Below the pieces are notes generated by a model. That model did no database searches. It had not been told where the DNA came from and was given only the letters and a program-made list of their open reading frames with translations. 27,768 nt of DNA from Burkholderiaceae bacterium (lineage in GTDB: Bacteria; Pseudomonadota; Gammaproteobacteria; Burkholderiales; Burkholderiaceae_C). Where the stretch lies: positions 1-27,768 of the forward strand of contig DATDES010000166.1 in assembly GCA_036522975.1 (NCBI GenBank), given 5' to 3'. Shown one piece after another: positions 3,099 to 17,637 of this stretch. Every line of letters starts with the position of its first letter. Position 1 is the first letter of the stretch. A program made the translations under genes and the position numbers.

Positions 3099-4706
3099 CT
3101 ACGGCAGTTGTTGGTATTGGGTCGCCAAAGTCTCGAACGACACGCGAGAAGCCTCGGCATCGAAGCCCGCGCCGAGTTCATCGGCCAGGATCGCGGCCAC
3201 GGGCGTGGCCTGGCGCGCGGCTTCGGCGGCGTCGAGAAAGAGCAGGCGTGACCGTCGGGCCAGTACGTCCTCGACGCTGAACGCCATCTCCTGGCGCGCG
3301 GCGAACCGCACCATCGCCTCGCTCAGGCCGCCCTGCCCTGATTCCGCATCGCGCCACAGCCAGCGGCTCGCGCCGGGCAGGCTGCGCACGACGGCGGCCT
3401 CGTCGCCATACAGGTGTTCTCCCGGCGCAGTCGTGATCGAGACGCTGGCTCTCGCGGGCGCCCCCACGAGCGGCAGATGCACCGTGACGCCGCCGGCGCG
3501 GCGCGGCAGCAGGCGACGGTCGAAGCAGCGCTCGAGCACGTCTTCGGCCATCGCGCGGTAGGTGGTCCACTTGCCGCCGGTGACGGTGACCAGGCCCGAA
3601 CGGCCGACCAGCACGGTGTGCTCGCGCGAGATCTGTTTGGTGTCCTCGCTGTCGTCGCCGCTCGGCTTCACCAGCGGACGCAGGCCGACCCACACCGAGC
3701 GCACATCGGCGCGCGTCGGCGACTTCGACAGGTAGCGCGCCGACTCGCGCAGGATGAACTGCACCTCCTCGGCGAACGGTGTCGGCTCGAACACGACGTC
3801 GTCGCGCGGCGTGTCGGTGGTGCCCAGGATTGTCTTGCCCAGCCACGGCACGGCGAAGAGCACGCGGCCGTCCTCGGTCTTTGGCACCAACAGCGCATGC
3901 GAACCGGGCATGAATGCCCGGTCGACCACCAGGTGCACCCCCTGGCTCGGCGCGACGATGCCGGGCTTTGCGGGCGCACCGGCCTCGCGGTCCATGTTAC
4001 GCAGGTCGTCGACCCAGACCCCGGTGGCATTGATCACGCACCGGGCGGCAATGCGCAGCCCGGCACCCCCGATCGCGTCCTGTGCGACAACGCCTGTGAC
4101 CTTGCCGCCGTCGCGCCGCAGCGCGGTGACCGGGCAGTGGTTGAGCACGACGGCGCCCCTGGCCGCCGCAGTGCGGGCCAGGGCCAGGGCTAGGCGCGCG
4201 TCGTCGAACTGGCCGTCCCAGTACTTCACGCCGCCCGACAAGCCGCGGGCCTGCACTGTCGGCAGCAGTTCCCTGGTGCGGGTAGCCGAGAGGAACTCAG
4301 TCGCGCCGAGGCCGCGCGACCCGGCCAGCGCGTCATACATCTTCAGGCCGACGCCGTAGAACGGCGCTTCCCAGAAATGGTAGGCCGGCATCACGAAGGC
4401 CAGCGGCTGCGCCAGGTGCGGCGCGTTGGCTAGCAGGGTGGCACGCTCGTGCAAGGCCTCCCGTACCAGCGACACATTGCCCTGCGCCAGGTAGCGCACC
4501 CCGCCATGCACCAGTTTCGTCGCGCGCGAGCTGGTGCCTTTGGCGAAATCGTCGGCCTCGAGCAGCACGACCGAGAAACCGCGCGCCGCCGCGTCGAGCG
4601 CGACGCCGCAGCCAGTGGCGCCGCCACCGATCACGGCGAGGTCGAACCCGCCCGCGTCCTGCGCCGCCACGAGCGCCTCCGCGCGCGCCGATGCAGCGAG
4701 CGTCAT
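3099..4706 (-). CDS. glpD: FAD-dependent glycerol-3-phosphate dehydrogenase/oxidase
   Basis: DLAVIGGGATG FAD motif, GTSSRATKLVHGGVRYL, DGQFDDARL, WVGLRPL, ISREH, GGKWTTYR. Confidence 0.92.
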   Translation of the reverse strand: MTLAASARAEALVAAQDAGGFDLAVIGGGATGCGVALDAAARGFSVVLLEADDFAKGTSSRATKLVHGGVRYLAQGNVSLVREALHERATLLANAPHLAQPLAFVMPAYHFWEAPFYGVGLKMYDALAGSRGLGATEFLSATRTRELLPTVQARGLSGGVKYWDGQFDDARLALALARTAAARGAVVLNHCPVTALRRDGGKVTGVVAQDAIGGAGLRIAARCVINATGVWVDDLRNMDREAGAPAKPGIVAPSQGVHLVVDRAFMPGSHALLVPKTEDGRVLFAVPWLGKTILGTTDTPRDDVVFEPTPFAEEVQFILRESARYLSKSPTRADVRSVWVGLRPLVKPSGDDSEDTKQISREHTVLVGRSGLVTVTGGKWTTYRAMAEDVLERCFDRRLLPRRAGGVTVHLPLVGAPARASVSITTAPGEHLYGDEAAVVRSLPGASRWLWRDAESGQGGLSEAMVRFAARQEMAFSVEDVLARRSRLLFLDAAEAARQATPVAAILADELGAGFDAEASRVSFETLATQYQQLP

Positions 4707-5269
4707 GTTGTCACCTCCTCGCCCGCCAACAGGGCGAGCTTGTTCATCGTCGCCCAGTTGCGCGTCGTGGCCTGCTCACCAACCACCTTGGCGAACGCCT
4801 GGCTGACGGGGCTGTCGAGCACACCGCTCGCGCACCACAGGTAGGCCGCGTGCGGGACCAGGGCCAGGCCGTCGGGCGCCCAGTCACGCGCACTCAGGTG
4901 TTCGAGCACCCGCCTGTCGAGGCTGGGTGCGAGGATCGCCAGCATCAGCCTGGCGTCATCGTCGGCCAGCGCCCGCAGCGGGTGCGCGGCCAAGAGTTCG
5001 GCCAGGGTGTCGGCGGCCAGCACGAAGACCCGCGCATGGATGCCGAGCTTCTTGTGCAGGGCGGCCTCGATCGCCGACGCCAGGGCTGCCGCTGTGGCAC
5101 GCGGGAGCGCACCGAACACTGCATTGCCGCTGTTGAGCAGGGTCCGCACGTCGGTGTAGCCCAGGCTCTCGAGCAGGCTTCGCAGGTCGGCCATCGCGAT
5201 GCGCTTGGCGCGGCCGACATTGACGCCGCGCAGCAGCGCGATCCAGGTCGGGCGCGGACGACGGGCCAT
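4703..5269 (-). CDS. DUF1697 family protein
   Basis: IALLRGVNVG...MADLR..LESLGYTDVRTLLNSGNAVF signature; ATGA overlap with glpD. Confidence 0.85.
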   Translation of the reverse strand: MARRPRPTWIALLRGVNVGRAKRIAMADLRSLLESLGYTDVRTLLNSGNAVFGALPRATAAALASAIEAALHKKLGIHARVFVLAADTLAELLAAHPLRALADDDARLMLAILAPSLDRRVLEHLSARDWAPDGLALVPHAAYLWCASGVLDSPVSQAFAKVVGEQATTRNWATMNKLALLAGEEVTT

Positions 5270-5281
5270 CGGTGCAGGGCC

Positions 5282-6064
5282 TCAGCTGATCACCGACTGC
5301 TGTGCAATGCCACCGTCGACCAGCACATGCTGGCCCGTCATGCCGTCGCTGTCGTCGGCGGCCAGGAAGAGCGTGGCGCGCGCGACATGGCTCGGGTCGA
5401 GCCTGATCTTCAGGCATTGCGCGTCGAGGAACTCCTTGTCCGCCGCCGGGTCGCGGTGCAAGGTGGTCTGGCGGTCGGTGACGATGGCGCCAGGCACCAG
5501 CGCATTGACGCGGATGTTGCGGGCACCGAGTTCGCGCGCCAGGGTACGCGTCAGGCCGAGGATGCCGGCCTTGGCTGTCGTGTAGCCGACCAGGTTGGGC
5601 CGGCCACGCATCCAGCTCACCGAGCCCATGTTGATCACGCTGCCGCCGCCGGCCTTCGCCATGCCGGGCGTGACGGCCTGGATGGCGAAGAAGTAGTGCT
5701 TCAGGTTGAGCGCGAGGCGGTCGTCCCAGAACGCACTCGTCACCTCTTCCATCTTGTGGCGGTCATCGCGGCCGGCGTTGTTGACGAGCACGCGCACCGG
5801 CCCGAGCTCGCTCTCGACGCGGCCGAGCAAGGCCTGGTAGGCGGTCACGTCGCGCACGTCGCAGGCGCCGTACCAGGGCACCGGGCCGCCGGCCGCGAGC
5901 ACCTCGTCGATCAGGGCATTGCCGCCTTCGGGCTTGGTTCCGCAGAACGCAACCTTCGCGCCCTGTGCCGCGAACGCGCGCACGAGTTCGGCGCCGATGC
6001 CCGAACTGCCGCCGGAGACGAAGACCACACGGTCCGTCAGCGACGCGTAGCGGGTGTAGCTCAT
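5282..6064 (-). CDS. sedA: SDR oxidoreductase, probable sulfoquinovose 1-dehydrogenase
   Basis: SGGSSGIG, NNAGRDDRH, YTTAK; the INMGSVSWMRGRP and LVPGAIxTxRQ segments match my recollection of Pseudomonas putida SQ1 SQ dehydrogenase rather than Caulobacter XylB (SWHLGL); cluster context. Confidence 0.75.
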   Translation of the reverse strand: MSYTRYASLTDRVVFVSGGSSGIGAELVRAFAAQGAKVAFCGTKPEGGNALIDEVLAAGGPVPWYGACDVRDVTAYQALLGRVESELGPVRVLVNNAGRDDRHKMEEVTSAFWDDRLALNLKHYFFAIQAVTPGMAKAGGGSVINMGSVSWMRGRPNLVGYTTAKAGILGLTRTLARELGARNIRVNALVPGAIVTDRQTTLHRDPAADKEFLDAQCLKIRLDPSHVARATLFLAADDSDGMTGQHVLVDGGIAQQSVIS

Positions 6065-6075
6065 GACGGGGCTCC

Positions 6076-6978
6076 CTACAGTTGGGCGATGTGGGCCGGC
6101 AGCCCCGCCACATCGACCCGCAGTTGCAGCACGCGGCCGGCAAGCGGCTCGCGCGCCAATTCGTCGGCCGGGCGCTTCTCGCGCGCGGTCGTGATGTACA
6201 GGGTCTTGAGGTCGGGGCCGCCGAAGCAGGGCATCGTCGGGCAGCGCACCGGCAGCGGTATCTCGCGGCTGAGCGTGCCGTCGGCGCTGAAGCGTAGCAC
6301 GCGCGCGCCCTCGAACATCGCCACCCAGTAGCCACCCTCGACATCGACGGCAGCGCCGTCGGGGCGGCCGCCATAGCGGGCGAGATCCTGCGCCGGGGTC
6401 TTGGGTGGAAACTGCAGGAATGCGCGGCGACGCGACAGGCTGCCGTCGCCGACGTCGAAGTCCAGCGCGTCGACGCGGTGGGCCTTGGTGTCAGCCCAGT
6501 ACATCGTGCGCGCATCGGGGCTCCAGGCCAGGCCGTTGCTGACCGTGATGTCGCCGGCCATCTTGTCGAGCCGGCCCGCGCCGAAGCGGTAGAGCGCGGC
6601 ACGCGGCGGATCGCGCGGCTCGTAGATCGTCCCGACCCAGAAGCGACCCTTCGGGTCGGCCTTGCCGTCGTTGAAGCGCTCATGCGCCGGGTCGTAGGGT
6701 GCCTCGGCAAGGGGGTACGACTTGCCGGACCCGGGGTCGAAGCGCACGAGCCCGTCACGCAGGGCCAGCAGCAGACCACCGTCGTTCAGCGGTGCGCAAC
6801 TGCCAACGTCGGTGTCGAAGGACCACTCGCGGTGCGTGCCGCTGGCCGGATCGAAGCGGTTCAGTGTGTGGCCCGGGATGTCGCACCAGTAGAGCAACTG
6901 CTCGCCCGGGTGCCACAGCGGCGACTCGCCGAGCAGGCTGGGTGGAACGCCAGGCAAGGATTCGATTCGCGCGCTCAC
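6076..6978 (-). CDS. sedB: SMP-30/gluconolactonase family, probable 6-deoxy-6-sulfogluconolactonase
   Basis: LGESPLWH, RFNDGKADPKGRFWVG, SNGLAWSPD, PDGAAVD, PTMPCFGG; GTG start at 6978 overlaps the epimerase TGA (GTGA). Family is certain, substrate is from context. Confidence 0.75.
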   Translation of the reverse strand: MSARIESLPGVPPSLLGESPLWHPGEQLLYWCDIPGHTLNRFDPASGTHREWSFDTDVGSCAPLNDGGLLLALRDGLVRFDPGSGKSYPLAEAPYDPAHERFNDGKADPKGRFWVGTIYEPRDPPRAALYRFGAGRLDKMAGDITVSNGLAWSPDARTMYWADTKAHRVDALDFDVGDGSLSRRRAFLQFPPKTPAQDLARYGGRPDGAAVDVEGGYWVAMFEGARVLRFSADGTLSREIPLPVRCPTMPCFGGPDLKTLYITTAREKRPADELAREPLAGRVLQLRVDVAGLPAHIAQL

Positions 6979-7844
6979 GCTTTGGCGATGTCGATCGTCA
7001 TCCAGGCTTCGAGCGTCTCGCCTGCGGGCAGGCCGACCAAGCCATGCGCGGCCGGGTCGGCCATCTGGATCGCATTGCTGACATGGCTGACCGGCTCGAC
7101 GCAGAAGTAGTCGCGCGACGGCGGCGTGAAGACCACCAGGTAGGGCAGCGATGACGTGAGCTTGAGGGCCAGCTTCTCGTCGCGCAGGTTGGCCGCGCCG
7201 CGCCAGCCTTCGAAGCAGTTGTCGAAGTCGAGGTGGCGCACCTCGCCGTCGATGCTGCCCTGCTGGACACGCCGGGTGGGCAGTTGCGTGCCCGGGTCGG
7301 ATTCCCATCGCTGCGTGCACTCGATGTGCAGGCGGCTGCGAGAGCGCTTCGGGAAATACGGGTGCCAGCCCAGGCCCACCGGCTGGGTGCGCGCGTCGAT
7401 ATTGGTCACCGACAGGCGCAGTGTCAGCGCCTGGTCGCTCAGCTCGATGCTCTGGGTTGCGTCGAAGTTGAAGGGCCAGTGCTCGTTGGCCAGGTGCGTG
7501 GTGGCCAGCTCGGCCTGGGTGGCATTGCTGCCGGCGACGCGCCAGGGGGTCTGCCACACCGTGCCGTGCAGCGAGTGCGGGTTGCCGGCATCGAAGTTCG
7601 GCGCGGTCGTGTGGTCACGGCCGAGCCAGCGGAAATGGCGATAACCGATGCGATTCGAATAGGGCGCCAGCGGGAAGCAGGCCGACGGCCGCGAGGCCAG
7701 CAGTTCGGCCGGCTCGCAGCTGCGCAGGATCGGTGTCGTGTCGTGCCAGAAACCGGCGATGGCGCCGCCCAGGTCGGGGCGCAAGGCCAGGCGCAGCGCG
7801 CCGGCACGAAGTTCGATGGCTGGGGTGCTAGGGACTGCGGTCAT
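6975..7844 (-). CDS. Aldose 1-epimerase family, probable SQ mutarotase
   Basis: FPLAPYSNRI, HSLHG, GLGWHPYF, YFCVEPVSH; GGAG RBS before ATG 7844. Confidence 0.8.
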   Translation of the reverse strand: MTAVPSTPAIELRAGALRLALRPDLGGAIAGFWHDTTPILRSCEPAELLASRPSACFPLAPYSNRIGYRHFRWLGRDHTTAPNFDAGNPHSLHGTVWQTPWRVAGSNATQAELATTHLANEHWPFNFDATQSIELSDQALTLRLSVTNIDARTQPVGLGWHPYFPKRSRSRLHIECTQRWESDPGTQLPTRRVQQGSIDGEVRHLDFDNCFEGWRGAANLRDEKLALKLTSSLPYLVVFTPPSRDYFCVEPVSHVSNAIQMADPAAHGLVGLPAGETLEAWMTIDIAKA

Positions 7845-7913
7845 GGGGCTCCGGGGCGGGTTCGTTGGCGCGCCGGCGATCGCGCGCGTGCGCATCGTAA
7901 GCGCTGCAGCGCC

Positions 7914-9038
7914 TCACCAACAGGCCGGCAGGACTTCGGCAAGCGCCACCACGCGGCCTTCGTCGATGCTCCTGTGCGCAGCCAGGCCAGTGGCCACCGC
8001 CCGCAGGCCCTCGTCGAGCGGTATTTCCGCCGGCAGGCCGTTGCGCAGCGCGTGCGCGAACTTCTGGTGTTCGATGTAGCTCGCGCCGAAGTGCTGGCCC
8101 AGGTACTTGATGTTGGTGTCGCGGATCTGGCGCACGGCGACGCCCTTGGCGGTGCCGGACGGCTGGCCCCAGACCTCGCGCCGGCCCCAGTCCTCGCGGC
8201 GCCCGTAGCGCAACACGCCAGAGGGCAGCAGCGACTCGAGCTTGCCTTCGGCGCCGACGATGGTGACGTGCTCGTTGTCGACCGAGTTCTCCGCGAACAT
8301 GCACAAGTCCAGGCTCGCACGGGCTCCGCTGGGGTACTCGACGATCACGTAGGCACTGTCGAGGATGTCGGGCACTGTTTGACCATCGGGGCCGTCGTAG
8401 CTTTCGTCGAGGTGGTTGACGCGCTGGCCACCCGAGGCGAACACCCGCGCGGGCTTCTCCTTCAGGATGAAGTCCATCAGGTTGAAGTAGTGGCAGCACT
8501 TTTCGACCAGAGTGCCGCCGGTATTGGCATTGAAGCGGTTCCAGTCGCCGACCTTCGGGTAGAAGGGCTCACGGTGCTCGCGGATCGCCACCTGGTGCAG
8601 GCGGCCGACGCCGCCCTCGTGGGCGATGCGGATCATCTCGGCCACCGGCGGCATGTAGCGGTATTCCTGCGCCACCCAGACGATGCCCTTGCGACCTTTG
8701 GCGCGCTCGATCATCTCGACGCCGTCGGCCACGCGCGTGACAAGCGGCTTTTCGCACAGGATGTGCAGGTCGGTCGCCAGCGCGTCGCGCATCACCTCGA
8801 TGTGGGTGAAGTTCGGACTGGCGATCACGAGCGCGTCGCACAGGCCGCTCTTCAGCAGGTCCCTGTGGTTTTCAAAGAGCTGGGCCTTGCCGTCGAGCAG
8901 CGCCGCGGCAGCGTCCCGGCTGGGCAGCGCCGGGTCGGCGATCGCGGTGACCTTGGCACCACCCAAGGCGCGCAGGTTCTCGATGTGCTCGCGGCCCATG
9001 CTGCCGCAGCCGATGATGCCGTAACGAAGCTTGTTCAT
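7914..9038 (-). CDS. sqgA: Gfo/Idh/MocA-fold protein, probable NAD+-dependent sulfoquinovosidase (GH188)
   Basis: GIIGCGSMG and CEKPL; EYRYMPP, IREHREPFYPKV, WNRFNANTGGTLVEKCCH, LDLCMFAE and KYLGQHFGASY match recalled GH188 and plant homologues; located in an SQ cluster lacking a GH31 gene. Confidence 0.8.
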   Translation of the reverse strand: MNKLRYGIIGCGSMGREHIENLRALGGAKVTAIADPALPSRDAAAALLDGKAQLFENHRDLLKSGLCDALVIASPNFTHIEVMRDALATDLHILCEKPLVTRVADGVEMIERAKGRKGIVWVAQEYRYMPPVAEMIRIAHEGGVGRLHQVAIREHREPFYPKVGDWNRFNANTGGTLVEKCCHYFNLMDFILKEKPARVFASGGQRVNHLDESYDGPDGQTVPDILDSAYVIVEYPSGARASLDLCMFAENSVDNEHVTIVGAEGKLESLLPSGVLRYGRREDWGRREVWGQPSGTAKGVAVRQIRDTNIKYLGQHFGASYIEHQKFAHALRNGLPAEIPLDEGLRAVATGLAAHRSIDEGRVVALAEVLPACW

Positions 9039-9045
9039 GCGGGTC

Positions 9046-9876
9046 TCAACCTTTGAGGCCGCCCTGCGTCAAGCCACCGACCACGCGCTCCTGAAAGATC
9101 GCAATCAGCACGGCAATCGGCACGATGGCCACGATCAGGGCGGCCGAGATGATCGGCCAGGGAAAAGTGAACTCGCCCTGGTACAGCGTGATGCCGACCG
9201 GCAGGGTGCGCATCGACGCGCTCGAGTTCAAGGACAAGGCGAGCAGGAATTCGTCCCAGGCATTGACGAAGGCCAGGATGCCGGCCGTGAACACCCCCGG
9301 CGCGGCCAGCGGCACGACCACACGCCACAACGCACCCATGCGTGTGCAGCCATCGATCATCGCAGCGTTCTCGAGGTCCTTGGGGATGCTCTGGAAGAAG
9401 CTCACCAACACCAGGGTGCAGACCGGCAGGTTGAGCACGATGTAGGGCAGCACGAGCGCGGTATAGGTGTTGAGCAGCCCAAGCGCGCGCATGGTCTCGA
9501 AGATCGGCACCAGCAGCGTGACCAGCGGGAACATGCTCGATGCGACGATGCAGGTCAGGATCAGCTGCCGGTGCTTGAGGTTCAGGCGCGCGATCGCGTA
9601 GGCGGCCAGGGCCGAGACCAGCAGCGAGAAGACCGTCGCGCTCAGGGCCACCGCCAGGCTGTTGCCCAGGTACTTGAGCAGGGGCTGGTCGGTGAAGGCC
9701 TGGACGTAATTGGCCAAGGTCGGGTTGTGCGGCCAGTATGTGATGGGCTTGCTGACCAGCTCCGATTCGGTCTTCAGCGAGGTGAGCAGGATCCACACCG
9801 CGGGAAAGAAGCCGTTGATCACGACCAGGCCGGCCGCGATCAGGCGCAGCGACTTGGCATCCCAAAGGCTCCTCAT
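9046..9876 (-). CDS. Carbohydrate ABC transporter permease (MalG-like)
   Basis: Multiple TM helices; SIPKDLENAAMIDG EAA motif; FVNAWDEFL; LPVGI. Confidence 0.92.
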   Translation of the reverse strand: MRSLWDAKSLRLIAAGLVVINGFFPAVWILLTSLKTESELVSKPITYWPHNPTLANYVQAFTDQPLLKYLGNSLAVALSATVFSLLVSALAAYAIARLNLKHRQLILTCIVASSMFPLVTLLVPIFETMRALGLLNTYTALVLPYIVLNLPVCTLVLVSFFQSIPKDLENAAMIDGCTRMGALWRVVVPLAAPGVFTAGILAFVNAWDEFLLALSLNSSASMRTLPVGITLYQGEFTFPWPIISAALIVAIVPIAVLIAIFQERVVGGLTQGGLKG

Positions 9877-9957
9877 GACGACCCCCAAGACGCCTGCGGC
9901 GTCGGCCCCCCGAGGGGGCGCGTTTCGTCTCGAGGCGGCTCGGCGACGAAACTCATG
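9872..9957. repeat. 80-bp triple-hairpin element (copy 2) flanked by a CTCATG direct repeat
   Basis: CTCATG at 9872-9877 and 9952-9957; stems GACGCC-TGC-GGCGTC (9889-9903), GCCCCC-CGA-GGGGGC (9905-9919), GTTTCGTC...GACGAAAC (9922-9952). Confidence 0.8.
9873..9956 (-). other. 27-aa element-derived mini-ORF (MSFVAEPPRDETRPLGGPTPQASWGSS) bridging the two permeases
   Basis: Its ATG overlaps the upstream permease TGA (ATGA at 9956-9953) and its TGA overlaps the downstream permease ATG (ATGA at 9876-9873); translation is untested. Confidence 0.45.
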
Positions 9958-10855
9958 CGTTCTTCCCGATGCGCTTCAAGTAGAACCCGGTCACGAACAG
10001 CGAGAGCACGAACATGCACACCGCGAGCGTGCTGCCGTAACCGACGTCGAGGTAGTCGATCGTGGTCTTGTGGATCAGCATCGCCAGCGTCTCGGTGCTG
10101 TTGCCCGGGCCGCCCTTGGTCATCGTGTACGGGATGTCGAAGGTCTGCAGCGCGGTGATGGTGCGGAAGATCAGCGCGACGATGATCGACGGCATCAGCA
10201 TCGGGATCGTGATCTGCCAGAACTGCTGCCACTTCGACGCGCCGTCGACCTCGGCCGCCTCGTAGAGCGATTTCGGGATCATCTGCAGCCCTGCCAGCAG
10301 GATCAGGGCCATGAAGGAACTGGTCTTCCAGACGATCGTCAGGCAGATCGCCGCGAAGGCCCAGTTCGGCCGCAGCAGCCACATTGCCGGCTCGCTCGGC
10401 GCGGCCACCCGGCGCACCACGTCGTTGACGACACCGTACTCGGTGTGGAAGAACCACGCGAAGATCAGGCCGGCGAATGCCAGCGGCAGCGCCCAGGGCA
10501 GCAGGAGGGCCAGGCGCACCGGCCACTTGCGTTTGAACGGCAGGTTGGCCAGCATCGCCAGGCCCAGGCCGACGACCAGCGCGCCGGGCACGGTGATCAA
10601 GGTGATCAGCACCGTGTTCTTGGTGGCGTTCCAGAAGTCCGGGTCCTTGAGGACGAGCGCGTAGTTCTCGAAGCCGACGAACTTGAAGCCGCCGCCACCC
10701 GACAGGCGCAGGTCGTAGAAGCTGTTCCAGATCAGCTTGGCGATCGGATAGACGACGATCAGCGCCAGCAGCAGGAAGGCCGGCGCGAGCAGCATGACGC
10801 CGAGCGTCTTCTCGCTCGGGTCACGCAGTCGATCGACAGTGCTCGCGCCCGCCAT
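9953..10855 (-). CDS. Carbohydrate ABC transporter permease (MalF-like)
   Basis: LLLAPAFLLL, FVGFENY, LLLPWALP, IPKSLYEAAEVDGA EAA motif, TKGGPG. Confidence 0.92.
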   Translation of the reverse strand: MAGASTVDRLRDPSEKTLGVMLLAPAFLLLALIVVYPIAKLIWNSFYDLRLSGGGGFKFVGFENYALVLKDPDFWNATKNTVLITLITVPGALVVGLGLAMLANLPFKRKWPVRLALLLPWALPLAFAGLIFAWFFHTEYGVVNDVVRRVAAPSEPAMWLLRPNWAFAAICLTIVWKTSSFMALILLAGLQMIPKSLYEAAEVDGASKWQQFWQITIPMLMPSIIVALIFRTITALQTFDIPYTMTKGGPGNSTETLAMLIHKTTIDYLDVGYGSTLAVCMFVLSLFVTGFYLKRIGKNA

Positions 10856-10867
10856 GCCCGCCGCCGC

Positions 10868-12142
10868 TCAGCGCATCACTCGGGTCAGACGCGACTCGAT
10901 CTCGTTCACGCCCTCGGCCGGGGTCTTGGTGCGCGCCAGCACCGCGCTGGTCGTGGTGCGGATGATGTCGCTGACCTGACCGTAGTCCTTGCTCATCGGG
11001 CGGCTCTTGCCGGCAATGACGACATTGGCGGCGTCCTTGAACCAGGGAACCACCTTGGTCACGTCGGCATCGGTGTAGACGCCGGGGTAGGTCGCCAGCA
11101 GCGAGCCTTCGACGGCGAGGAACTTGCTCGACTCGGGGCTGGCCAGGTGCTTGACGAGGTTGGCCGCCGCCTGCTTGTTCTTGCTGAAGGCGCTGACCGC
11201 CCATTGCCAGCCGCCGACGCAAGTCGCGCTCTTGCCGCCGGTCATCGCCGGCAACGGCATCACGCCGACCTTGCCCTTGACCTGCGAATCGGCGTCGTCT
11301 TTGAAACGGTCCCAGGCGAAGCCCCAGTTGATCGCGAACACGACCTGGCCGGCCTTGAATTCGTTGACCGTGTCGGGGGTCTTGACCTCGGCGACATTCT
11401 TCTTGATCACGCCGGCGTCGACCATCGACAGCCACTGCGTCAGCCCCTTGGTTGCCGCACCCTTGTCGAGCGTCATCTTGCCGGCCGGGTCGTTGAAGTC
11501 CTTGCCCTGGCCCCAGTAGGGCAGCAGGAACGTGCAGACGGCGCCCTCGATCGGCGCGCCCTGGATCGACAGGCCTTGCAGGTTGGCATTGCTCTCGGCC
11601 TTCTGGATCTTGGCCGCCGCGGCCGTCAGTTCGTCCCAGGTCTTGGGCTCCGCGACGCCGTACTTGTCGAGCAGGTCCTTGCGGTAGTACATGAACATCG
11701 CATCGGCAAAGGCCGGCATCGCGGCGATCTTGCCGTCGACGACGTTCGACGTCGCATACACCGGCAGGTAGGGCTTCATCACGTCGGCCGGCTTGCCGAT
11801 GTAGGCATCGAGCGGCTCGAGCCAGCCCGCCCCGTAGTACTGCGCCGGGTTGACGATGTCGATCAGGTAGATGTCGATCGCCGGGTCCTTGGCGTTGAGC
11901 ACGGTGCTCAGGTACTGGCGCTGCAGCTCGCTGGTCGCGCCACCGGTCTCGATCTCGACCTTGACGTTGGGGTTCTTGGCCTGGTACTGGTCGAACAGCT
12001 TGCGCATCAGGTCCGGACGCTGGTTGGCGCCGCCGGAGAACACGCGCAGCGTGGTCTGCTGGGCGAAGGAGGTGACGCTGAATCCGACGCCGGCCAGGAA
12101 GGCGGCGAGGGTCAATGTCGTGAGGGATTGGCGGCGCTTCAT
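10868..12142 (-). CDS. smoF: ABC substrate-binding protein, SmoF-like SQ/SQ-glycerol binding protein
   Basis: Sec signal peptide, AAGGAG RBS; ETGGATSELQRQYLSTV, PAFADAMFMYYRKDLLDKYG, IEGAVCTFLLPYW, TCVGGW, SRP and ESRLTRVMR align with recalled Agrobacterium SmoF. Confidence 0.8.
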   Translation of the reverse strand: MKRRQSLTTLTLAAFLAGVGFSVTSFAQQTTLRVFSGGANQRPDLMRKLFDQYQAKNPNVKVEIETGGATSELQRQYLSTVLNAKDPAIDIYLIDIVNPAQYYGAGWLEPLDAYIGKPADVMKPYLPVYATSNVVDGKIAAMPAFADAMFMYYRKDLLDKYGVAEPKTWDELTAAAAKIQKAESNANLQGLSIQGAPIEGAVCTFLLPYWGQGKDFNDPAGKMTLDKGAATKGLTQWLSMVDAGVIKKNVAEVKTPDTVNEFKAGQVVFAINWGFAWDRFKDDADSQVKGKVGVMPLPAMTGGKSATCVGGWQWAVSAFSKNKQAAANLVKHLASPESSKFLAVEGSLLATYPGVYTDADVTKVVPWFKDAANVVIAGKSRPMSKDYGQVSDIIRTTTSAVLARTKTPAEGVNEIESRLTRVMR

Positions 12143-12185: not shown

Positions 12186-13259
12186 TCAAAGGGCGGCGCC
12201 GCTGCCGGCGTCGAACAGGTGCAGGTGGCGCGGGTTCATGTGCACGGCCAGGCGCGTGCCGGGCGGGTCGCGAAACGCGGCGTTGCAGCGCGAGACCATC
12301 TCGGCCGCGCCGATCTTCAGCGACACCAGGGTCTCGGCGCCCAGGGGTTCGAGCAGCGAGACCTCGGCCGGCACGGCCAGGTCGCTCTCGCTCTGCCGGG
12401 CGAGCGTGATGTTCTCGGGCCGGATGCCGAACTTGAGCTTGGCCGCTCCGTTGGCGCGCGCCGCCAGCTCGGGCGGCAACGCGATCTCGGTCCCGCCGAG
12501 GTCGGCCCGCCCGCCCCGCAGCGCGCAGTCGGCCAGGTTCATCGGCGGCGCGCCGGTGAAGCCGGCGACGAACACCGCGGCCGGGTGGTTGTAGATGTTG
12601 TCGGGCGTGTCGTACTGCATCTTCCTGCCGGCCGACAGCACCGCAATGCGGTCGGCCATCGTCATCGCCTCGACCTGGTCGTGGGTGACGTAGATGATCG
12701 TCGCGCCCAGGCGCTGGTGCAGACGCTTGATCTCGCTCCTCATCTCGTGGCGCAGTTGGGCATCGAGGTTCGACAGCGGCTCGTCGAACAGGAAGACCTT
12801 GGGCTGGCGCACGATGGCGCGACCGATCGCCACGCGCTGGCGCTGCCCGCCCGACAGCGCGGCAGGCTTGCGCTCGAGCATGTGGTCGATCTTCAGCAGC
12901 TTGGCCGCGTCCATCACGCGGCGCTTGATTTCCGCCTCCTCGGTTCCGCGCAGGCGCAGGCCGAAGGCCATGTTGTCGTACAGGTTCTTGTGTGGGTACA
13001 GCGCATAGTCCTGGAACACCATCGCGATGTCGCGCGCGCGAGGCGGCAGGTCGTTGACGACCTTGCCGTCGATGCAGACGTCGCCGCCGGTGATCGTCTC
13101 CAGGCCGGCGATCATGCGCAGCAGGGTGCTCTTGCCACAGCCCGAGGGCCCGACGAAGACCACGAATTCGCCATGCTGGATCTGCAGGTCGATGCCGTGG
13201 ATGACTTGCGTCTTGCCGTCGTAGCTCTTGACGACGCCCTTGAGGTCGACCGCCGCCAT
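12186..13259 (-). CDS. Carbohydrate ABC transporter ATP-binding subunit (MalK/UgpC-like)
   Basis: GPSGCGKS Walker A, LSGGQRQR signature, FLFDEPLSNLD, YVTHDQ; ATG 13259 overlaps the aldolase TGA. Confidence 0.95.
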   Translation of the reverse strand: MAAVDLKGVVKSYDGKTQVIHGIDLQIQHGEFVVFVGPSGCGKSTLLRMIAGLETITGGDVCIDGKVVNDLPPRARDIAMVFQDYALYPHKNLYDNMAFGLRLRGTEEAEIKRRVMDAAKLLKIDHMLERKPAALSGGQRQRVAIGRAIVRQPKVFLFDEPLSNLDAQLRHEMRSEIKRLHQRLGATIIYVTHDQVEAMTMADRIAVLSAGRKMQYDTPDNIYNHPAAVFVAGFTGAPPMNLADCALRGGRADLGGTEIALPPELAARANGAAKLKFGIRPENITLARQSESDLAVPAEVSLLEPLGAETLVSLKIGAAEMVSRCNAAFRDPPGTRLAVHMNPRHLHLFDAGSGAAL

Positions 13260-14080
13260 CAGTAGGCTCCCGAACCGGTCTGCGTGCCGCCCGCCAAGGT
13301 GTGCACATGGGTTTCGCCGTCGGGCGTGGTGAGCGCTTTCACGGCCGCTTGTGCGCCGCGCATCAGCAGTCCCAGGTCGCTGCCGATGGCCACATAGTCG
13401 AAGCCCATCGCGCGGTACTGGACGACGAGCTCGGGCGTGCCGCCGACGGTGCCCACCGGCATGTCCACCGCCTTGCAGCGGCGCGCCGCGTCGGCCATCA
13501 CGCGCATCACATCGGGATGGGTGGTGTTGCCGGCGTGGCCGAGCGCGGCCGACAGATCGCCGGGGCCGAGGAAGAGGGAATCGACGCCCGGCACCGCGGC
13601 AATCGCTTCGAGTTGCGCCACCGCGGCCGGCGTCTCCAGTTGCAGCACGGCGCCGACGGTCTTGTTGGCCGTCTTGGCGTAATCGGGCACGGTGCCGAAC
13701 TTGGAGCCCCGGCTCATGCCGGCCAGGCCGCGATTGCCTTCGGGCGGGTAGCGCGTGGCGGCCACCGCGCGCCGGGCTTCGTCGGCGTTCTGCACGAAGG
13801 GAATCAACAGGGTGTGCGCGCCGGCATCGAGCACCCGCTTGATGCTGACGGTGTCGTTCCAGGGCACCCGCACGATCGGCACCATTTTCGTATTGCCGGC
13901 CGCCTGCAGCAGATGAATCACCTCCATCATGTCTAGCGGCGTGTGCTCCATGTCGATCACGCCCCACTGGAAACCGGCGTGGCCCATCGCCTCGGTGACG
14001 ATGGGGCTGGCAGCCATGATCCACGTGCCGAGCGGCGCGTGGGATCCGGCGGACTTGAGCAACTGGCGTAGCGGGTTCAT
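13259..14080 (-). CDS. sedD: HpcH/HpaI class II aldolase, probable 2-keto-3,6-dideoxy-6-sulfogluconate (KDSG) aldolase
   Basis: IDMEHTP, VRVPWND, KRVLDAGA, RYPPEGNRG, QLET, FLGPGDLS; GAGG RBS before ATG 14080. Substrate is from context. Confidence 0.75.
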   Translation of the reverse strand: MNPLRQLLKSAGSHAPLGTWIMAASPIVTEAMGHAGFQWGVIDMEHTPLDMMEVIHLLQAAGNTKMVPIVRVPWNDTVSIKRVLDAGAHTLLIPFVQNADEARRAVAATRYPPEGNRGLAGMSRGSKFGTVPDYAKTANKTVGAVLQLETPAAVAQLEAIAAVPGVDSLFLGPGDLSAALGHAGNTTHPDVMRVMADAARRCKAVDMPVGTVGGTPELVVQYRAMGFDYVAIGSDLGLLMRGAQAAVKALTTPDGETHVHTLAGGTQTGSGAY

Positions 14081-14095
14081 GACCGGGTTCCTCAA

Positions 14096-15838
14096 TCAAT
14101 AGATGACCGGCTCGGGTGTACTGGCCGCACCCTGCAGGAAGTCGAAGTCGCAGCCTTCGTGGGCCTGCGTCACGTGTTCGCGGTACAGGCGCACGAAGCC
14201 GCGGCTCTGAGGTGCGGCCGGCGCCCTCCACGCGGCGCGACGGCGCGCCAGTTCGCCGTCGGCAACATGCAGGTGGACGCGCCGGGCCTCGATGTCGATC
14301 TCGATCTCGTCGCCGCTGCGCACGCACGCCAGGGGCCCGCCGACCGCGCTCTCGGGGCTGACGTGGAGGATGCAGGTGCCGTAGTGGGTGCCGCTCATGC
14401 GCGCGTCTGAGATGCGCACCATGTCGCGCACCCCTAGCGCGAGCAGTTTCTTCGGGATCGGCAGGCCGCCCCATTCGGGCATGCCCGGGGCGCCGACCGG
14501 ACCGGCGTTGCGCAGGACGAGCACTGTGTTCTCGTCGCAGGCGAGGTTCGGGTCGGCACAGGCCCGGTTCATGTCGGCCGGGTCATCGAACACGAGCGCG
14601 GTGCCCCGGTGCTTGAAGAACTTCGGGCTGGCTGCACTGGCTTTCATTACCGCGCCCTCGGGTGCGAGGTTGCCGCGCAGCACGGCCAGCGCGCCACCGG
14701 GACTGACCGGCCGGTCGAGCGGGCGGATCACTTCGTCGTCGAGCACCGCCACGCCCTCCAGGTTATCGCCGAGGGTGCGGCCGTTGACGCAACGCTCGCC
14801 CAGCGACAGCTGCGCCCTGATCCGGGTCATCAGCGCCGGCAGGCCGCCGGCGTAGTGAAAGTCTTCCATCAGCCGGTCGCCGCTCGGGAACAGGTTGGCC
14901 AGAACCGGTACCTTGCGGCCGACGGCATCGAGGTCGTCGAGCGTGAGTTCGACGCCGGCGCGGCGCGCCATCGCGATGATGTGCACCGCGGCATTGGTCG
15001 AACCGCCCAGGGCCATTTGGACCGCTGCGGCGTTCAGGAACGCGCCGCGGGTCAGGATCGATTGCGGCGTCAAGTCGTCCCAGACCATCTGGACAACGCG
15101 CTCGCCGCAGGTGGTGGCCATGCGCACATGGCCGGCATCCATGGCCGGGATCGCGGTCGAGCCGGGCAGTGCCAGGCCGAGCGCTTCGACGATCGAGGTC
15201 ATCGTGCTCGCGGTGCCCATCGTGTTGCAGGTGCCCGGGCTGCGGGTCATGTGCGCTTCGAGTTCGATCCATTCGGCCTCGCTGACCTTGCCGGCCTGGT
15301 ACTCGTCCCAGAACAGGCGCGTGTGGGTGCCAGCGCCTACTTTGCGCTCGGCTTGTCCGGGCTTGAGGTAGCGGTCGTTCAGCATCGGCCCGGCCGCGCA
15401 GAAGATCGTCGGCAGGCCCATGCTGATCGCACCCATCAGGGTGCCCGGCGTGGTCTTGTCGCAGCCGGCGAGCAGCACGACCCCGTCGATCGGCAGCGAG
15501 CGCAACAGCTCCTCGACTTCCATCGCCAGGAAGTTGCGATAGAGCATCGTGGTCGGCTTCACCATCACCTCGCCCAGGCTCATCGCCGGCAGCTCAAACG
15601 GCAAGCCGCCGGCCATCAGCACCCCGCGCTTGACCGCTTCGGCGCGCTCGCGCAGGTGGGCGTGGCAGGGTGACAGCTCGCTCCAGGTGTTGACGATCGC
15701 AATGCACGGCTTTTCGAGCACATCCTCGCGCCGCAGGCCCATCTGCTGGGCGCGCTGGCGGTGCGCGAAGGCACGCATGTCACGCGCGGCAAACCAGCGC
15801 CGGCTGCGCAGATCGGCGAGCGTCTTCAGGCGGCTCAT
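14096..15838 (-). CDS. sedC: IlvD/Edd-family Fe-S dehydratase, probable 6-deoxy-6-sulfogluconate dehydratase
   Basis: NTWSELSPCH, GCDKTT, GTCNTMGTAST, GGSTN; RAFAHRQR, GEVMVKPTT, GAGTHT and RMSGTHYG match the recalled P. putida SQ1 SG dehydratase. Confidence 0.78.
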   Translation of the reverse strand: MSRLKTLADLRSRRWFAARDMRAFAHRQRAQQMGLRREDVLEKPCIAIVNTWSELSPCHAHLRERAEAVKRGVLMAGGLPFELPAMSLGEVMVKPTTMLYRNFLAMEVEELLRSLPIDGVVLLAGCDKTTPGTLMGAISMGLPTIFCAAGPMLNDRYLKPGQAERKVGAGTHTRLFWDEYQAGKVSEAEWIELEAHMTRSPGTCNTMGTASTMTSIVEALGLALPGSTAIPAMDAGHVRMATTCGERVVQMVWDDLTPQSILTRGAFLNAAAVQMALGGSTNAAVHIIAMARRAGVELTLDDLDAVGRKVPVLANLFPSGDRLMEDFHYAGGLPALMTRIRAQLSLGERCVNGRTLGDNLEGVAVLDDEVIRPLDRPVSPGGALAVLRGNLAPEGAVMKASAASPKFFKHRGTALVFDDPADMNRACADPNLACDENTVLVLRNAGPVGAPGMPEWGGLPIPKKLLALGVRDMVRISDARMSGTHYGTCILHVSPESAVGGPLACVRSGDEIEIDIEARRVHLHVADGELARRRAAWRAPAAPQSRGFVRLYREHVTQAHEGCDFDFLQGAASTPEPVIY

Positions 15839-15874
15839 CGGCAGGGGAGGGATTTCGAGGATCGCATCGGCTGG

Positions 15875-15888
15875 TGTTACCGCTAACA
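15875..15888. promoter_or_regulatory. Palindromic LacI/GntR-type operator TGTTA-CCGC-TAACA in the divergent promoter region
   Basis: Matches the ATGTTA-N4-TAACAT consensus of the LacI-family gluconate repressor GntR; 37 bp upstream of the dehydratase ATG and 41 bp upstream of the regulator ATG. Confidence 0.75.
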
Positions 15889-15929
15889 TTAATGGGTGAG
15901 CGACCTCGCTACCACCCGAGCAAACCCGA

Positions 15930-17021
15930 ATGCCCCCGTCGAATCCCTTGCCCGCCCGTGCCGCGCCACGTCAGCCACGCCGCGGTCACGGCCGAGCCAC
16001 CTTGGCCGACGTGGCCGCCGCCGCCGGCGTCACCGCGATCACCGTTTCGCGTTACCTGCGCGAGCCGCACCGCGTCGCGCCGGCCACCGCCAGCGCCATC
16101 GCCGCCGCTTTGCAGCAGACCGGCTACCTGCCCAACAAGCAGGCCGGCGTGCTGGCCAGCGCCGCCAAGGCAGCGCCGGGCGGCGCTCGGATGGTCGCGG
16201 CCCTGATCCCGAGCATCGCCAATTCGATCTTTGCCGAGACCGTGCAGGGTCTGGCCGATGCGCTGCAAGGATCAGGGTGTGAGTTGTTACTCGCTTCGAC
16301 GGGCTACTCGGTCGATCGCGAAGAGGAACAGTTGCGCGCGCTGCTTGGCTGGTTCCCGAGCGCCCTGGTGGTTACCGGCCGGCGCCACACGCCCGGCGCA
16401 CTGGCCCTGTTGCGCCAGGCGCGATCGCGCGGGACGCCGGTGATCGAGATCTGGGACCATCACCCCGAGCCTGGCGCGGAAAGCTTCACCCAAATCGGGT
16501 TCGACCACGAACAGATCGGCCGCGCGATGGCCGAGCACCTGATCCAGCGCGGGCACCGCTCCCTGGCCTATGTCGACAGCGGCGTGGCCGAGGACTTTCG
16601 GGCTCACGAACGCGGCGACGGCTTCCTGGCTGCCGCCAAGCGCCGTCGCATCCCGGCGCGGCGCTTGACGGCGCCGGCCGGCGAAGCCATCGAGGCCGGG
16701 CGCCTCGCCCTTGCCGGCCTGCTCGATCCAAAAGGCCGCCTGACCGTGCGTGCCGCCGCCTTCGCCAATGACCACCTGGCCTGCGGCGCGCTGCTCGAAG
16801 CGCGGCAGCGCGGCCTGGCGCTGCCGCAGGACCTGGCATTGCTGGGCTTCGGCGACTTCAGCCTCGGCCGCCAACTCGACCCACCACTGTCCACCGTGCA
16901 CACGCCGCGCTTCGAAATCGGCCAGGCGGCGGCGCGCGCGCTGCTGCAGGCCCTGCACAGCGGCCAGGCCGCCGCCGATCAACGCCTGCCCTGGACCCTG
17001 ATCGCCCGTGGCAGCAGCTGA
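15930..17021 (+). CDS. LacI-family transcriptional regulator (GntR/IdnR-like), probable repressor of the SQ operon
   Basis: HTH TLADVAAAAGVTAITVSRYL, GYLPNKQAGVLAS, IPSIANSIFAETVQG, PVIEIWD, LLGFGD, PPLSTV. Confidence 0.9.
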   Translation: MPPSNPLPARAAPRQPRRGHGRATLADVAAAAGVTAITVSRYLREPHRVAPATASAIAAALQQTGYLPNKQAGVLASAAKAAPGGARMVAALIPSIANSIFAETVQGLADALQGSGCELLLASTGYSVDREEEQLRALLGWFPSALVVTGRRHTPGALALLRQARSRGTPVIEIWDHHPEPGAESFTQIGFDHEQIGRAMAEHLIQRGHRSLAYVDSGVAEDFRAHERGDGFLAAAKRRRIPARRLTAPAGEAIEAGRLALAGLLDPKGRLTVRAAAFANDHLACGALLEARQRGLALPQDLALLGFGDFSLGRQLDPPLSTVHTPRFEIGQAAARALLQALHSGQAAADQRLPWTLIARGSS

Positions 17022-17637
17022 AGCCGTCGCCGCCGCGGGCACCGGCTTCGCCCTCGGCGCGACCCTGATCATCGCCATCGGCGCCCAGAACGCCTTCGTG
17101 CTGCGCCAGGGCCTGCGGCGCGAGCATGTCGGCACCGTCGTCGCCTTCTGCGCCGCTGCCGATGCGCTGCTGATGACCCTCGGCGTGCTCGGCGCCGGCC
17201 GCGCGCTGACCGCGGCCCCGCAACTGGCGCGCTGGATGGCCGCGGCCGGCGCCCTGTTCCTGCTGCTCTATGGCCTGCGGGCCCTGCACCGCGCGTGGCG
17301 CCCCGCGTTCCTCGTCGCCGCCAGCCGGGATGGCCGCATGACGCGACGGGCCGCACTGGCGCAGGCGGCCGCCTTCACCCTGCTCAACCCGCACGTTTAC
17401 CTCGACACGGTGATGCTGGTCGGCGCGGTCGGCGCGCAGCAGAGCGTAGCAGTGCGCCCGGCCTTCCTGGTCGGCGCCTGCGCGGCCAGTGCGCTGTGGT
17501 TCGGTGGCCTGGGCTACGGCGCGCGCTGGCTCGCACCCTGGTTCGCGCAGCCCGCGGCGTGGCGCTGGCTCGACACGGTGGTTGGCCTGACGATGTTGCT
17601 GCTCGCCGCCGTGCTGGCGCGACACGCGCTGGCCTGA
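17008..17637 (+). CDS. LysE/ArgO-family amino acid exporter
   Basis: IAIGAQNAFVLRQG, TLLNPHVYLDTV, hydrophobic helices; the only candidate start is a GTG inside the regulator 3' end. Confidence 0.85.
   Translation: MAAAEAVAAAGTGFALGATLIIAIGAQNAFVLRQGLRREHVGTVVAFCAAADALLMTLGVLGAGRALTAAPQLARWMAAAGALFLLLYGLRALHRAWRPAFLVAASRDGRMTRRAALAQAAAFTLLNPHVYLDTVMLVGAVGAQQSVAVRPAFLVGACAASALWFGGLGYGARWLAPWFAQPAAWRWLDTVVGLTMLLLAAVLARHALA

Follow-up and report, generated by a model that had tools for sequence, protein, structure and literature searches.

A predicted GH188-type sulfoquinovosidase, labelled as an inositol dehydrogenase, in a sulfosugar operon of Burkholderiales

The founding, biochemically characterised members of glycoside hydrolase family GH188 in CAZy are FlSqgA and ArSqgA (Kaur et al. 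2023, PMC10755693), and the family was defined by iterated hidden Markov model searches that started from the AK01 enzyme's C-terminal domain (PMC10755693). GH188 activity depends on NAD+ and is independent of metals; it has been described on sulfoquinovosyl glycerol (SQGro) and on alpha- and beta-para-nitrophenyl sulfoquinovoside (PNPSQ), with incorporation of solvent hydrogen into C2, and in FlSqgA and ArSqgA it results in net hydrolysis of either anomer (PMC10755693). The fold includes a C-terminal alpha/beta dimerisation domain, and the homodimer is formed through the C-terminal beta-sheet (PMC10755693). Both the occurrence of SqgA in sulfo-Entner-Doudoroff (sulfo-ED) clusters and the existence of Burkholderiales members have already been reported (Kaur et al. 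2023, PMC10755693). Here we analyse a contig of 27,768 nucleotides from a Burkholderiaceae bacterium (DATDES010000166.1, assembly GCA_036522975.1; hereafter the window), in which homology, fold, residues, operon content and the recurrence of that operon in relatives make it very probable that a gene of the 'inositol dehydrogenase' type encodes a GH188 (SqgA-type) NAD+-dependent sulfoquinovosidase. We refer to this gene as sqgA.

The product of the window gene resembles ArSqgA (Arthrobacter sp. U41; 8QC3/8QC5/8QC6) and FlSqgA (8QC2/8QC8) in its two-domain fold, its predicted contacts to sulfoquinovose (SQ) and its Arg/Lys pair, and all of these genes lie in SQ catabolic clusters in which no GH31 gene was found. 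The differences are an identity of about 43% in the Foldseek alignment, a tyrosine (Tyr160) in place of Leu170, and a counterpart of the P278-T293 loop with unrelated, clade-conserved sequence. The host is betaproteobacterial and its cluster is of the sulfo-ED type with an ATP-binding cassette (ABC) importer, whereas the Arthrobacter cluster follows the sulfo-Embden-Meyerhof-Parnas (sulfo-EMP) route. Supplementary file 2 of PMC10755693 gives Paenarthrobacter ureafaciens (AUR_19370, 380 aa) as the organism behind 'Flavobacterium sp. (strain K172)', from which FlSqgA comes; this would explain the near-identity of FlSqgA and ArSqgA.

Identity, fold and active site of the window protein

The gene and the positions within it on which the comparison turns are the following, in order along the protein.

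7914..9038, minus strand: sqgA, predicted GH188-type NAD+-dependent sulfoquinovosidase (open reading frame, Pfam, PDB sequence matches and structural model)
8994..9011, minus strand: dinucleotide-binding motif G10-C-G-S-M-G15 of the Rossmann domain (translation; inside the PF01408 match)
8748..8750, minus strand: K97 (EKP), counterpart of ArSqgA K107, C3-OH contact (alignment; invariant in alignment A2)
8661..8663, minus strand: Y126 (EYRYMP), counterpart of ArSqgA Y136, C2 contact and proposed catalytic Tyr (alignment)
8553..8573, minus strand: predicted sulfonate-binding loop R156-E-P-F-Y160-P-K162, counterpart of ArSqgA R166...L170...K172, with Tyr for Leu (alignment)
8490..8504, minus strand: E179...H183 (VEKCCH), counterparts of ArSqgA E189 (C4-OH) and H193 (C3-OH) (alignment)
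8142..8198, minus strand: clade-specific loop REDWGRREVWGQPSGTAKG, residues 281-299, occupying the hypervariable loop that corresponds to ArSqgA P278-T293
8091..8093, minus strand: H316 (GQHFG), counterpart of ArSqgA H321, C1-O contact (register from the alignment)

The open reading frame starts with ATG and encodes 374 aa; its G+C content at third codon positions is 0.90, in surrounding DNA of 68.5% G+C. The plus-strand frame of the same interval is also free of stops, but its product, rich in Ala, Arg and Val, is typical of the antisense frames of GC-rich DNA and was rejected. Pfam recognises in the product generic Gfo/Idh/MocA domains only, PF01408 (residues 4-123) and PF02894 (residues 141-366), and neither Pfam nor NCBIfam contains a GH188-specific model. 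Membership in GH188 was judged by proxy, through matches of the C-terminal domain to solved GH188 proteins, and separation from non-GH188 proteins was read as a gap in bit scores, in place of a rooted phylogeny.

This gap is wide. In phmmer searches of PDB, the product aligns over its full length with the structures of FlSqgA (8qc2/8qc8; E 8.3e-96, 324 bits, residues 3-367) and of ArSqgA (8qc3/8qc5/8qc6; E 2.5e-95, 324 bits), and 8zn9 is matched at E 2.8e-87; the first match outside GH188 is a Thermotoga dehydrogenase (3ezy; E 1.6e-23, 87 bits). The C-terminal domain alone (residues 125-374) finds 8qc3, 8qc2 and 8zn9 at E 6.5e-61 to 1.6e-58 and the next chain at 3.5e-7, with 209 bits to GH188 as against 33 bits to the best other PDB chain. 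Solved inositol dehydrogenases reach 40-52 bits in the full-length search, compared with 324 for the SqgA structures, and the inositol 2-dehydrogenase equivalog TIGR04380 (NCBIfam) scores 111.7 bits against a cut-off of 355, covering positions 2-251 of its 330. On this score, inositol dehydrogenase (IolG) was rejected as the identity of the product.

The predicted fold leads to the same assignment. The AlphaFold2 model, built from an alignment of 48 sequences, has a predicted local confidence (pLDDT) of 93.3 and a predicted TM-score (pTM) of 0.92, and its top 12 Foldseek matches in PDB are all GH188 chains (TM-score 0.88-0.93, root-mean-square deviation 1.7-1.9 A), the best structure outside the family reaching a TM-score of 0.76. 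Superposed on the 8qc* chains it gives TM-scores of 0.90-0.93, at 1.7 A in the comparison with SqgA that the original prediction had proposed as a check. The SqgA layout of an N-terminal Rossmann domain followed by the C-terminal domain is present in Pfam matches, in the GxGxxG motif at residues 10-15 and in the superposition alike, and in the alignment of the family G10 and G12 hardly vary. Sequence, fold, residue set and gene context thus all agree with the proposal, made originally from the DNA letters alone, that this apparent inositol dehydrogenase is a GH188 sulfoquinovosidase, and a Gfo/Idh/MocA-fold protein labelled 'inositol dehydrogenase' in databases is almost certainly to be re-annotated as a member of GH188.

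In ArSqgA, SQ is contacted by K107 and H193 at the C3-OH, Y136 at the C2-OH, E189 at the C4-OH and H321 at the C1-OH, and the side chains of R166 and K172 bind its sulfonate together with the L170 backbone NH (PMC10755693). When the residue register is counted in the HMMER alignment against the published ArSqgA numbering, K97, Y126, R156, K162, E179, H183 and H316 of the window protein pair one-to-one with K107, Y136, R166, K172, E189, H193 and H321. The residues that the original prediction had singled out (Y126 in EYRYMP, R156 and K162 in HREPFYPK, H316 in GQHFG) are all found at those positions in the translation, and the Tyr-Arg spacing of 30 and Arg-Lys spacing of 6 that it had noted equal those of Y136, R166 and K172 in ArSqgA. 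The catalytic and sulfonate-binding set is kept in 54-67 of 69 full-length family representatives (clusters at 50% identity), in all 121 near relatives and at all 80 related genomic loci. The position of Y126 is Tyr in 54 of the representatives and in every near relative, that of H316 is His in 57 of the representatives, and R156 and K162 are invariant in alignment A2.

A similar correspondence holds for RdSqgA of Roseobacter denitrificans OCh 114 (PMC12780224), in which K98, Y127, R156, L160, K162 and H183 stand against K97, Y126, R156, Y160, K162 and H183 of the window protein. RdSqgA carries Leu at position 160 and serves the sulfo-SMO (monooxygenase) cluster of a marine alphaproteobacterium. 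The structure 8zn9 was deposited alongside this paper on marine sulfoquinovosidases, which describes RdSqgA and cites PDB 8ZN9; from the title of the entry we infer that 8ZN9 is the RdSqgA structure, and its similarity to the window protein (E 2.8e-87, as above) extends to a TM-score of 0.88.

The single change among the substrate-contact positions is residue 160, Tyr in the window protein and Leu170 in ArSqgA. Leu occupies this position in 54 of the 69 representatives and in 96% of GH188 sequences as counted by Backlund and Higgins (2024, PMC11465081). Y160 is invariant in the 121 near relatives and at the 80 genomic loci, yet only four of the 69 family representatives carry Tyr. In ArSqgA, the P278-T293 loop packs against L170 (PMC11465081), and the counterpart of that loop in the window protein, REDWGRREVWGQPSGTAKG, is strongly conserved among near relatives and genomic loci of the Burkholderiales clade but hypervariable across the family. 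Compared with ArSqgA and FlSqgA, it carries two one-residue insertions in the HMMER alignment, making the region two residues longer. It is also the part of the model with the lowest confidence (pLDDT 56-63). This loop had been taken for an extra segment relative to plant homologues, a view that did not hold: the segment from residue 270 to residue 305 ranges from 0 to 83 residues across the representatives (median 28) and measures 36 here, an ordinary length, so that no insertion is involved; representatives with 44-52 residues include the eukaryotic Paulinella protein (P0154; 45 residues), Paulinella being the only named eukaryote in the comparison. Taken together, Tyr160 and the conserved loop would constitute a sequence signature of the Burkholderiales SqgA clade, and no earlier description of this variant was found in the literature.

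Tyr for Leu170 has been described in the 'Y160' and 'Y158' groups of GH188 (Backlund & Higgins 2024, PMC11465081), the former sharing even the residue number with the window protein. These groups are actinobacterial, with sulfo-EMP-like clusters (sulfofructose kinase, aldolase, SuyAB, fucose isomerase) and a truncated P278-T293 loop (PMC11465081), whereas the window protein, compared with them through their published description, has a full-length loop of 36 residues and a sulfo-ED cluster. Given the truncated loop and the actinobacterial, sulfo-EMP-like context there, membership of the window protein in the published 'Y160' group was judged unlikely. Among the representatives, Tyr at the Leu170 position occurs otherwise only in P0207, P0224 and P0271; their loops are short (23-31 residues), Ser, Cys or Leu replaces the catalytic Tyr in them, and the Tyr of P0271 is again at residue 160. 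These three may correspond to the published Y160/Y158 groups and, if they do, those groups would be devoid of the proposed catalytic Tyr, a point absent from PMC11465081.

As a further observation on the protein, residues 217-220 (8379-8390, minus strand) form a four-residue insertion, PDGQ, with respect to most close relatives (370 aa); a similar sequence, GPNGLTV, is found in a few relatives.

The operon, its pathway and its recurrence in Burkholderiales

The stop codon of the upstream permease lies 7 nt from the sqgA ATG, and 18 nt separate the sqgA stop from the start of the epimerase gene; hence, sqgA is placed inside a tight operon. The neighbouring genes are as follows.

3099..4706, minus strand: glpD, glycerol-3-phosphate dehydrogenase at the distal end of the operon (PF01266 and PF16901; NCBIfam GlpD models match under their cut-offs)
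4703-5269, minus strand: DUF1697 gene (Pfam)
5282..6064, minus strand: short-chain dehydrogenase/reductase (SDR), candidate sulfoquinovose 1-dehydrogenase (PF13561; best PDB match the Pseudomonas putida sulfoquinovose 1-dehydrogenase 9gwu, E 1.9e-80)
6076..6999, minus strand: SMP-30/gluconolactonase-family lactonase, candidate sulfogluconolactonase (PF08450, E 3e-82; start not fixed, near 6960-6999)
6975..7895, minus strand: aldose 1-epimerase, candidate SQ mutarotase (PF01263; the YihR family in Table S3 of Kaur et al.)
9046-9888 and 9953-10855, minus strand: two ABC permeases (PF00528 in both)
10868..12142, minus strand: SmoF-type binding protein, putatively for SQGro, of the ABC importer (SBP_bac_1; E 5.7e-135 to Agrobacterium tumefaciens SmoF, 7nbz and others)
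12186..13262, minus strand: ABC ATPase of UgpC/MalK type, start codon not fixed (PF00005 and TOBE_2; NF008653 at 481 bits, cut-off 432)
13259..14095, minus strand: HpcH/HpaI aldolase, candidate 2-keto-3,6-dideoxy-6-sulfogluconate (KDSG) aldolase (PF03328)
14096..15889, minus strand: IlvD/EDD-family dehydratase, candidate sulfogluconate dehydratase (PF00920 and PF24877; substrate from context)
15930..17021, plus strand: divergent LacI/GntR-type regulator (PF00356 and Peripla_BP_3)
17008-17637, plus strand: LysE-family gene after the regulator, recurring in some close relatives

According to Table S3 of Kaur et al. (PMC10755693), PF08450 is a signature family of sulfo-ED, and PF03328 is one of two families of KDSG aldolases, the other being PF01081. 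The window contains, together with SqgA, the set of families in their sulfo-ED signature (PF13561, PF08450, PF00920, PF03328 and PF01263), with the SDR, lactonase, dehydratase and aldolase genes tightly packed on one strand. By its gene families, the cluster is of the sulfo-Entner-Doudoroff type, and context would assign the lactonase, dehydratase and aldolase their sulfo-ED substrates. Of the four sulfo-ED enzymes, the SDR is the only one whose best match among solved structures is a sulfo-specific protein. The binding protein shows a comparable preference, its next PDB match after SmoF falling to 2e-58.

The same enzyme families (SDR-type SQ dehydrogenase, with E 1.9e-80 to PpSQDH, SMP-30 lactonase, IlvD/EDD dehydratase and aldolase) make up the sulfo-ED pathway of P. 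putida SQ1, and in the sulfo-ED clusters of Kaur et al. 2023 (Fig. 5, Table S3) SqgA takes the place of GH31, as it does in the window. The original prediction had argued that the absence of a classical GH31 enzyme from the window would leave the glycoside-cleaving step to this gene; no PF01055 match was indeed found, either in the window or in the whole assembly (78% complete, 263 contigs). The window cluster departs from known sulfo-ED clusters in the absence of a sulfolactaldehyde dehydrogenase and of a TauE-type exporter, and in the glpD gene appended to it. Its importer is of the SmoF type, whose first characterised example comes from the sulfo-SMO cluster of Agrobacterium.

A plausible route can be proposed from these genes, with the chemistry of SqgA modelled on that of FlSqgA and ArSqgA and SQGro as the likely physiological substrate. 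SQGro would be taken up through the SmoF-like binding protein, the two permeases and the UgpC/MalK-like ATPase. NAD+ bound in the Rossmann domain would then transiently oxidise C3 of the sugar, whose hydroxyl is predicted to be touched by K97 and H183, while R156 and K162, together with the residue-160 backbone NH, would grip the 6-sulfonate. Y126 would remove H2, and the aglycone (glycerol) would be eliminated with the assistance of H316; addition of water to the enone and re-reduction of C3 by the bound NADH would complete the net hydrolysis to SQ. Mutarotase, SQ dehydrogenase, lactonase, dehydratase and aldolase would convert SQ to pyruvate and sulfolactaldehyde, and the released glycerol might be handled by GlpD together with a GlpK encoded on another contig. 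This logic of oxidation, elimination, hydration and reduction is shared by the NAD+-dependent glycosidases of GH109 and GH4, of which GH109 also has a Gfo/Idh/MocA-like fold and is metal-independent, as SqgA is (PMC10755693). Both families differ from SqgA in their very low identity, a catalytic Tyr placed elsewhere and the lack of a sulfonate pocket, and they are not among the top Foldseek matches of the window protein.

Homologues of SqgA number in the thousands, and the 120 best are 84-100% identical to the window protein; those that bear a name are called inositol dehydrogenase, predicted dehydrogenase or Gfo/Idh/MocA oxidoreductase, many of them appearing as myo-inositol 2-dehydrogenase in JGI. 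Genomic context was read in the 80 best loci, with genes counted within +/-10 kb of sqgA. All 80 belong to Burkholderiales (Piscinibacter, Aquincola, Rubrivivax, Methylibium, Roseateles/Pelomonas, Leptothrix, Polaromonas, Rhodoferax, Acidovorax, Limnohabitans and many metagenome-assembled genomes, MAGs), and in most of them the same importer and ED genes surround sqgA. The two permease genes and a LacI-type regulator are kept in most related loci and the epimerase in the closest ones; glpD is present in most of the closest loci, and in L001 and L002 it comes after the SDR gene and is oriented alike. In Piscinibacter, the operon (SqgA 88% identical) extends past glpD into genes for an aldehyde dehydrogenase, a glycerol kinase and a TauE exporter. 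Members of the TauE family are exporters of sulfite or organosulfonates. The Piscinibacter operon fits a complete sulfo-ED route with glycerol disposal, in line with SQGro as substrate and glycerol as leaving group. In this freshwater or soil member of Burkholderiales, sqgA would open a sulfosugar-degrading operon.

None of the 80 related loci has a counterpart of the window's DUF1697 gene, even though they keep glpD, the SDR gene and the others; the DUF1697 gene looks like an incidental insertion of its own lineage and not a conserved part of the pathway. Several genomes contain two sqgA paralogues, about 88% and 78% identical to the window protein: Piscinibacter defluvii SH-1 (L018, L060), P. 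caeni MQ-18 (L028, L066) and the MAGs REEB187 (L062, L064) and MFD04651.bin.1.139 (L017, L024). Every paralogue is accompanied by a separate ABC importer and separate dehydratase/aldolase genes, and the second-copy cluster of the Piscinibacter pairs lacks the lactonase, the epimerase and glpD. The GH188 list of Kaur et al. (PMC10755693) includes 27 Burkholderiales entries, among them Rubrivivax, Methylibium, Aquabacterium, Leptothrix and Comamonadaceae, which may belong to the clade of the window protein; a close relative of the window protein, WP_127999892 / UPI000FDE3956, has no exact accession match in that list.

Weighing the assignment against other readings

Several observations weigh against a GH188 sulfoquinovosidase at the head of a sulfo-ED pathway. 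The absence of GH31, judged from the lack of a PF01055 match, rests on an assembly that is 78% complete. The dehydratase scores 894 bits with the NCBIfam L-arabinonate dehydratase model, above its cut-off of 882, and the SDR resembles xylose dehydrogenase, under the cut-off; certain flanking enzymes, taken on their own, would therefore fit a pentose pathway. Since the dehydratase passes the L-arabinonate equivalog, automatic annotation will label the sulfo-ED cluster as a pentose pathway. The window yielded neither a dehydrogenase or reductase for sulfolactaldehyde nor a TauE exporter, and the pathway as encoded here looks incomplete. Within the same partial genome, the Piscinibacter aldehyde dehydrogenase used as query retrieved only paralogues (best 42% identical) and the Piscinibacter TauE retrieved no match; a GlpK 73% identical to the Piscinibacter glycerol kinase is encoded on another contig (C69). 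The downstream genes are also missing within 10 kb in most of the closest relatives, and hence the sulfolactaldehyde gap is probably not an accident of assembly. Finally, the substitution of Tyr160 for Leu, next to a clade-specific and poorly modelled loop, leaves room for altered specificity or kinetics.

The boldest extension of the GH188 assignment would make the Burkholderiales SqgA clade a functionally distinct subfamily, defined by the invariant Tyr and the REDWG..R..WGQPSG loop, both present at each of the 80 loci, with a reshaped pocket or dimer interface and an undescribed end to the sulfo-ED route. We consider this an unlikely proposal. If true, the subfamily would have another substrate scope or other kinetics, for instance towards lyso-sulfolipid or other sulfosugar glycosides, and the fact that most of the operons also lack a gene for processing sulfolactaldehyde would suggest that sulfo-ED ends in a way not yet described in freshwater and soil betaproteobacteria.

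A related reading keeps the GH188 fold and the NAD+-dependent glycosidase activity but shifts the specificity from SQGro to another sulfosugar glycoside, a lyso-sulfolipid or a beta-linked SQ conjugate, with Tyr160 and the conserved Trp-rich loop remodelling the sulfonate pocket or the dimer interface. The clade-wide Tyr at a position where it is otherwise rare, the replacement by clade-conserved sequence of the loop that in ArSqgA packs on position 170, and the two paralogous sqgA clusters of several genomes, which would fit a divergence of substrates, all speak in its favour. Nonetheless, every side-chain contact to SQ is kept, and the sulfonate contact at position 170 is made by the backbone NH, so that the side chain need not matter and Tyr160 is no argument against sulfonate binding. 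The co-encoded binding protein is close to SmoF, an SQGro binder, and glpD in the operon suits a glycerol aglycone. On balance, a shift of this kind appears highly unlikely.

That the product is instead an ordinary Gfo/Idh/MocA dehydrogenase (myo-inositol 2-dehydrogenase or similar) releasing an oxidised product and NADH within an operon for generic pentose or hexose oxidation, as the JGI label of many orthologues, the generic Pfam domains and the resemblance of the dehydratase and SDR to pentose-pathway enzymes might suggest, is extremely improbable in the face of the poor scores with the IolG model and the inositol dehydrogenase structures, the retained Arg/Lys sulfonate pair and C1-contacting His, the sulfoquinovose-specific proteins found as best solved relatives of the binding protein and the SDR, and the TauE gene that ends the orthologous Piscinibacter operon.

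Implications for annotation and sulfosugar ecology

GH188, its mechanism and the presence of its members in sulfo-ED clusters had been published before, and the gain from the assignment of the window gene to GH188 lies in annotation and ecology, with no new principle involved. The re-annotation gives a specific function to a large set of proteins now labelled 'inositol dehydrogenase' or 'Gfo/Idh/MocA oxidoreductase', and it suggests that bacteria of the Sphaerotilaceae and Comamonadaceae type probably consume sulfoquinovosyl glycerol. A 2026 review describes freshwater sulfoquinovose cycling as poorly resolved and based mainly on P. putida SQ1, with GH188 present in freshwater MAGs (PMC13436972). 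Hence, the Burkholderiales lineages that carry this operon provide useful candidates for the bacteria involved in that cycle.

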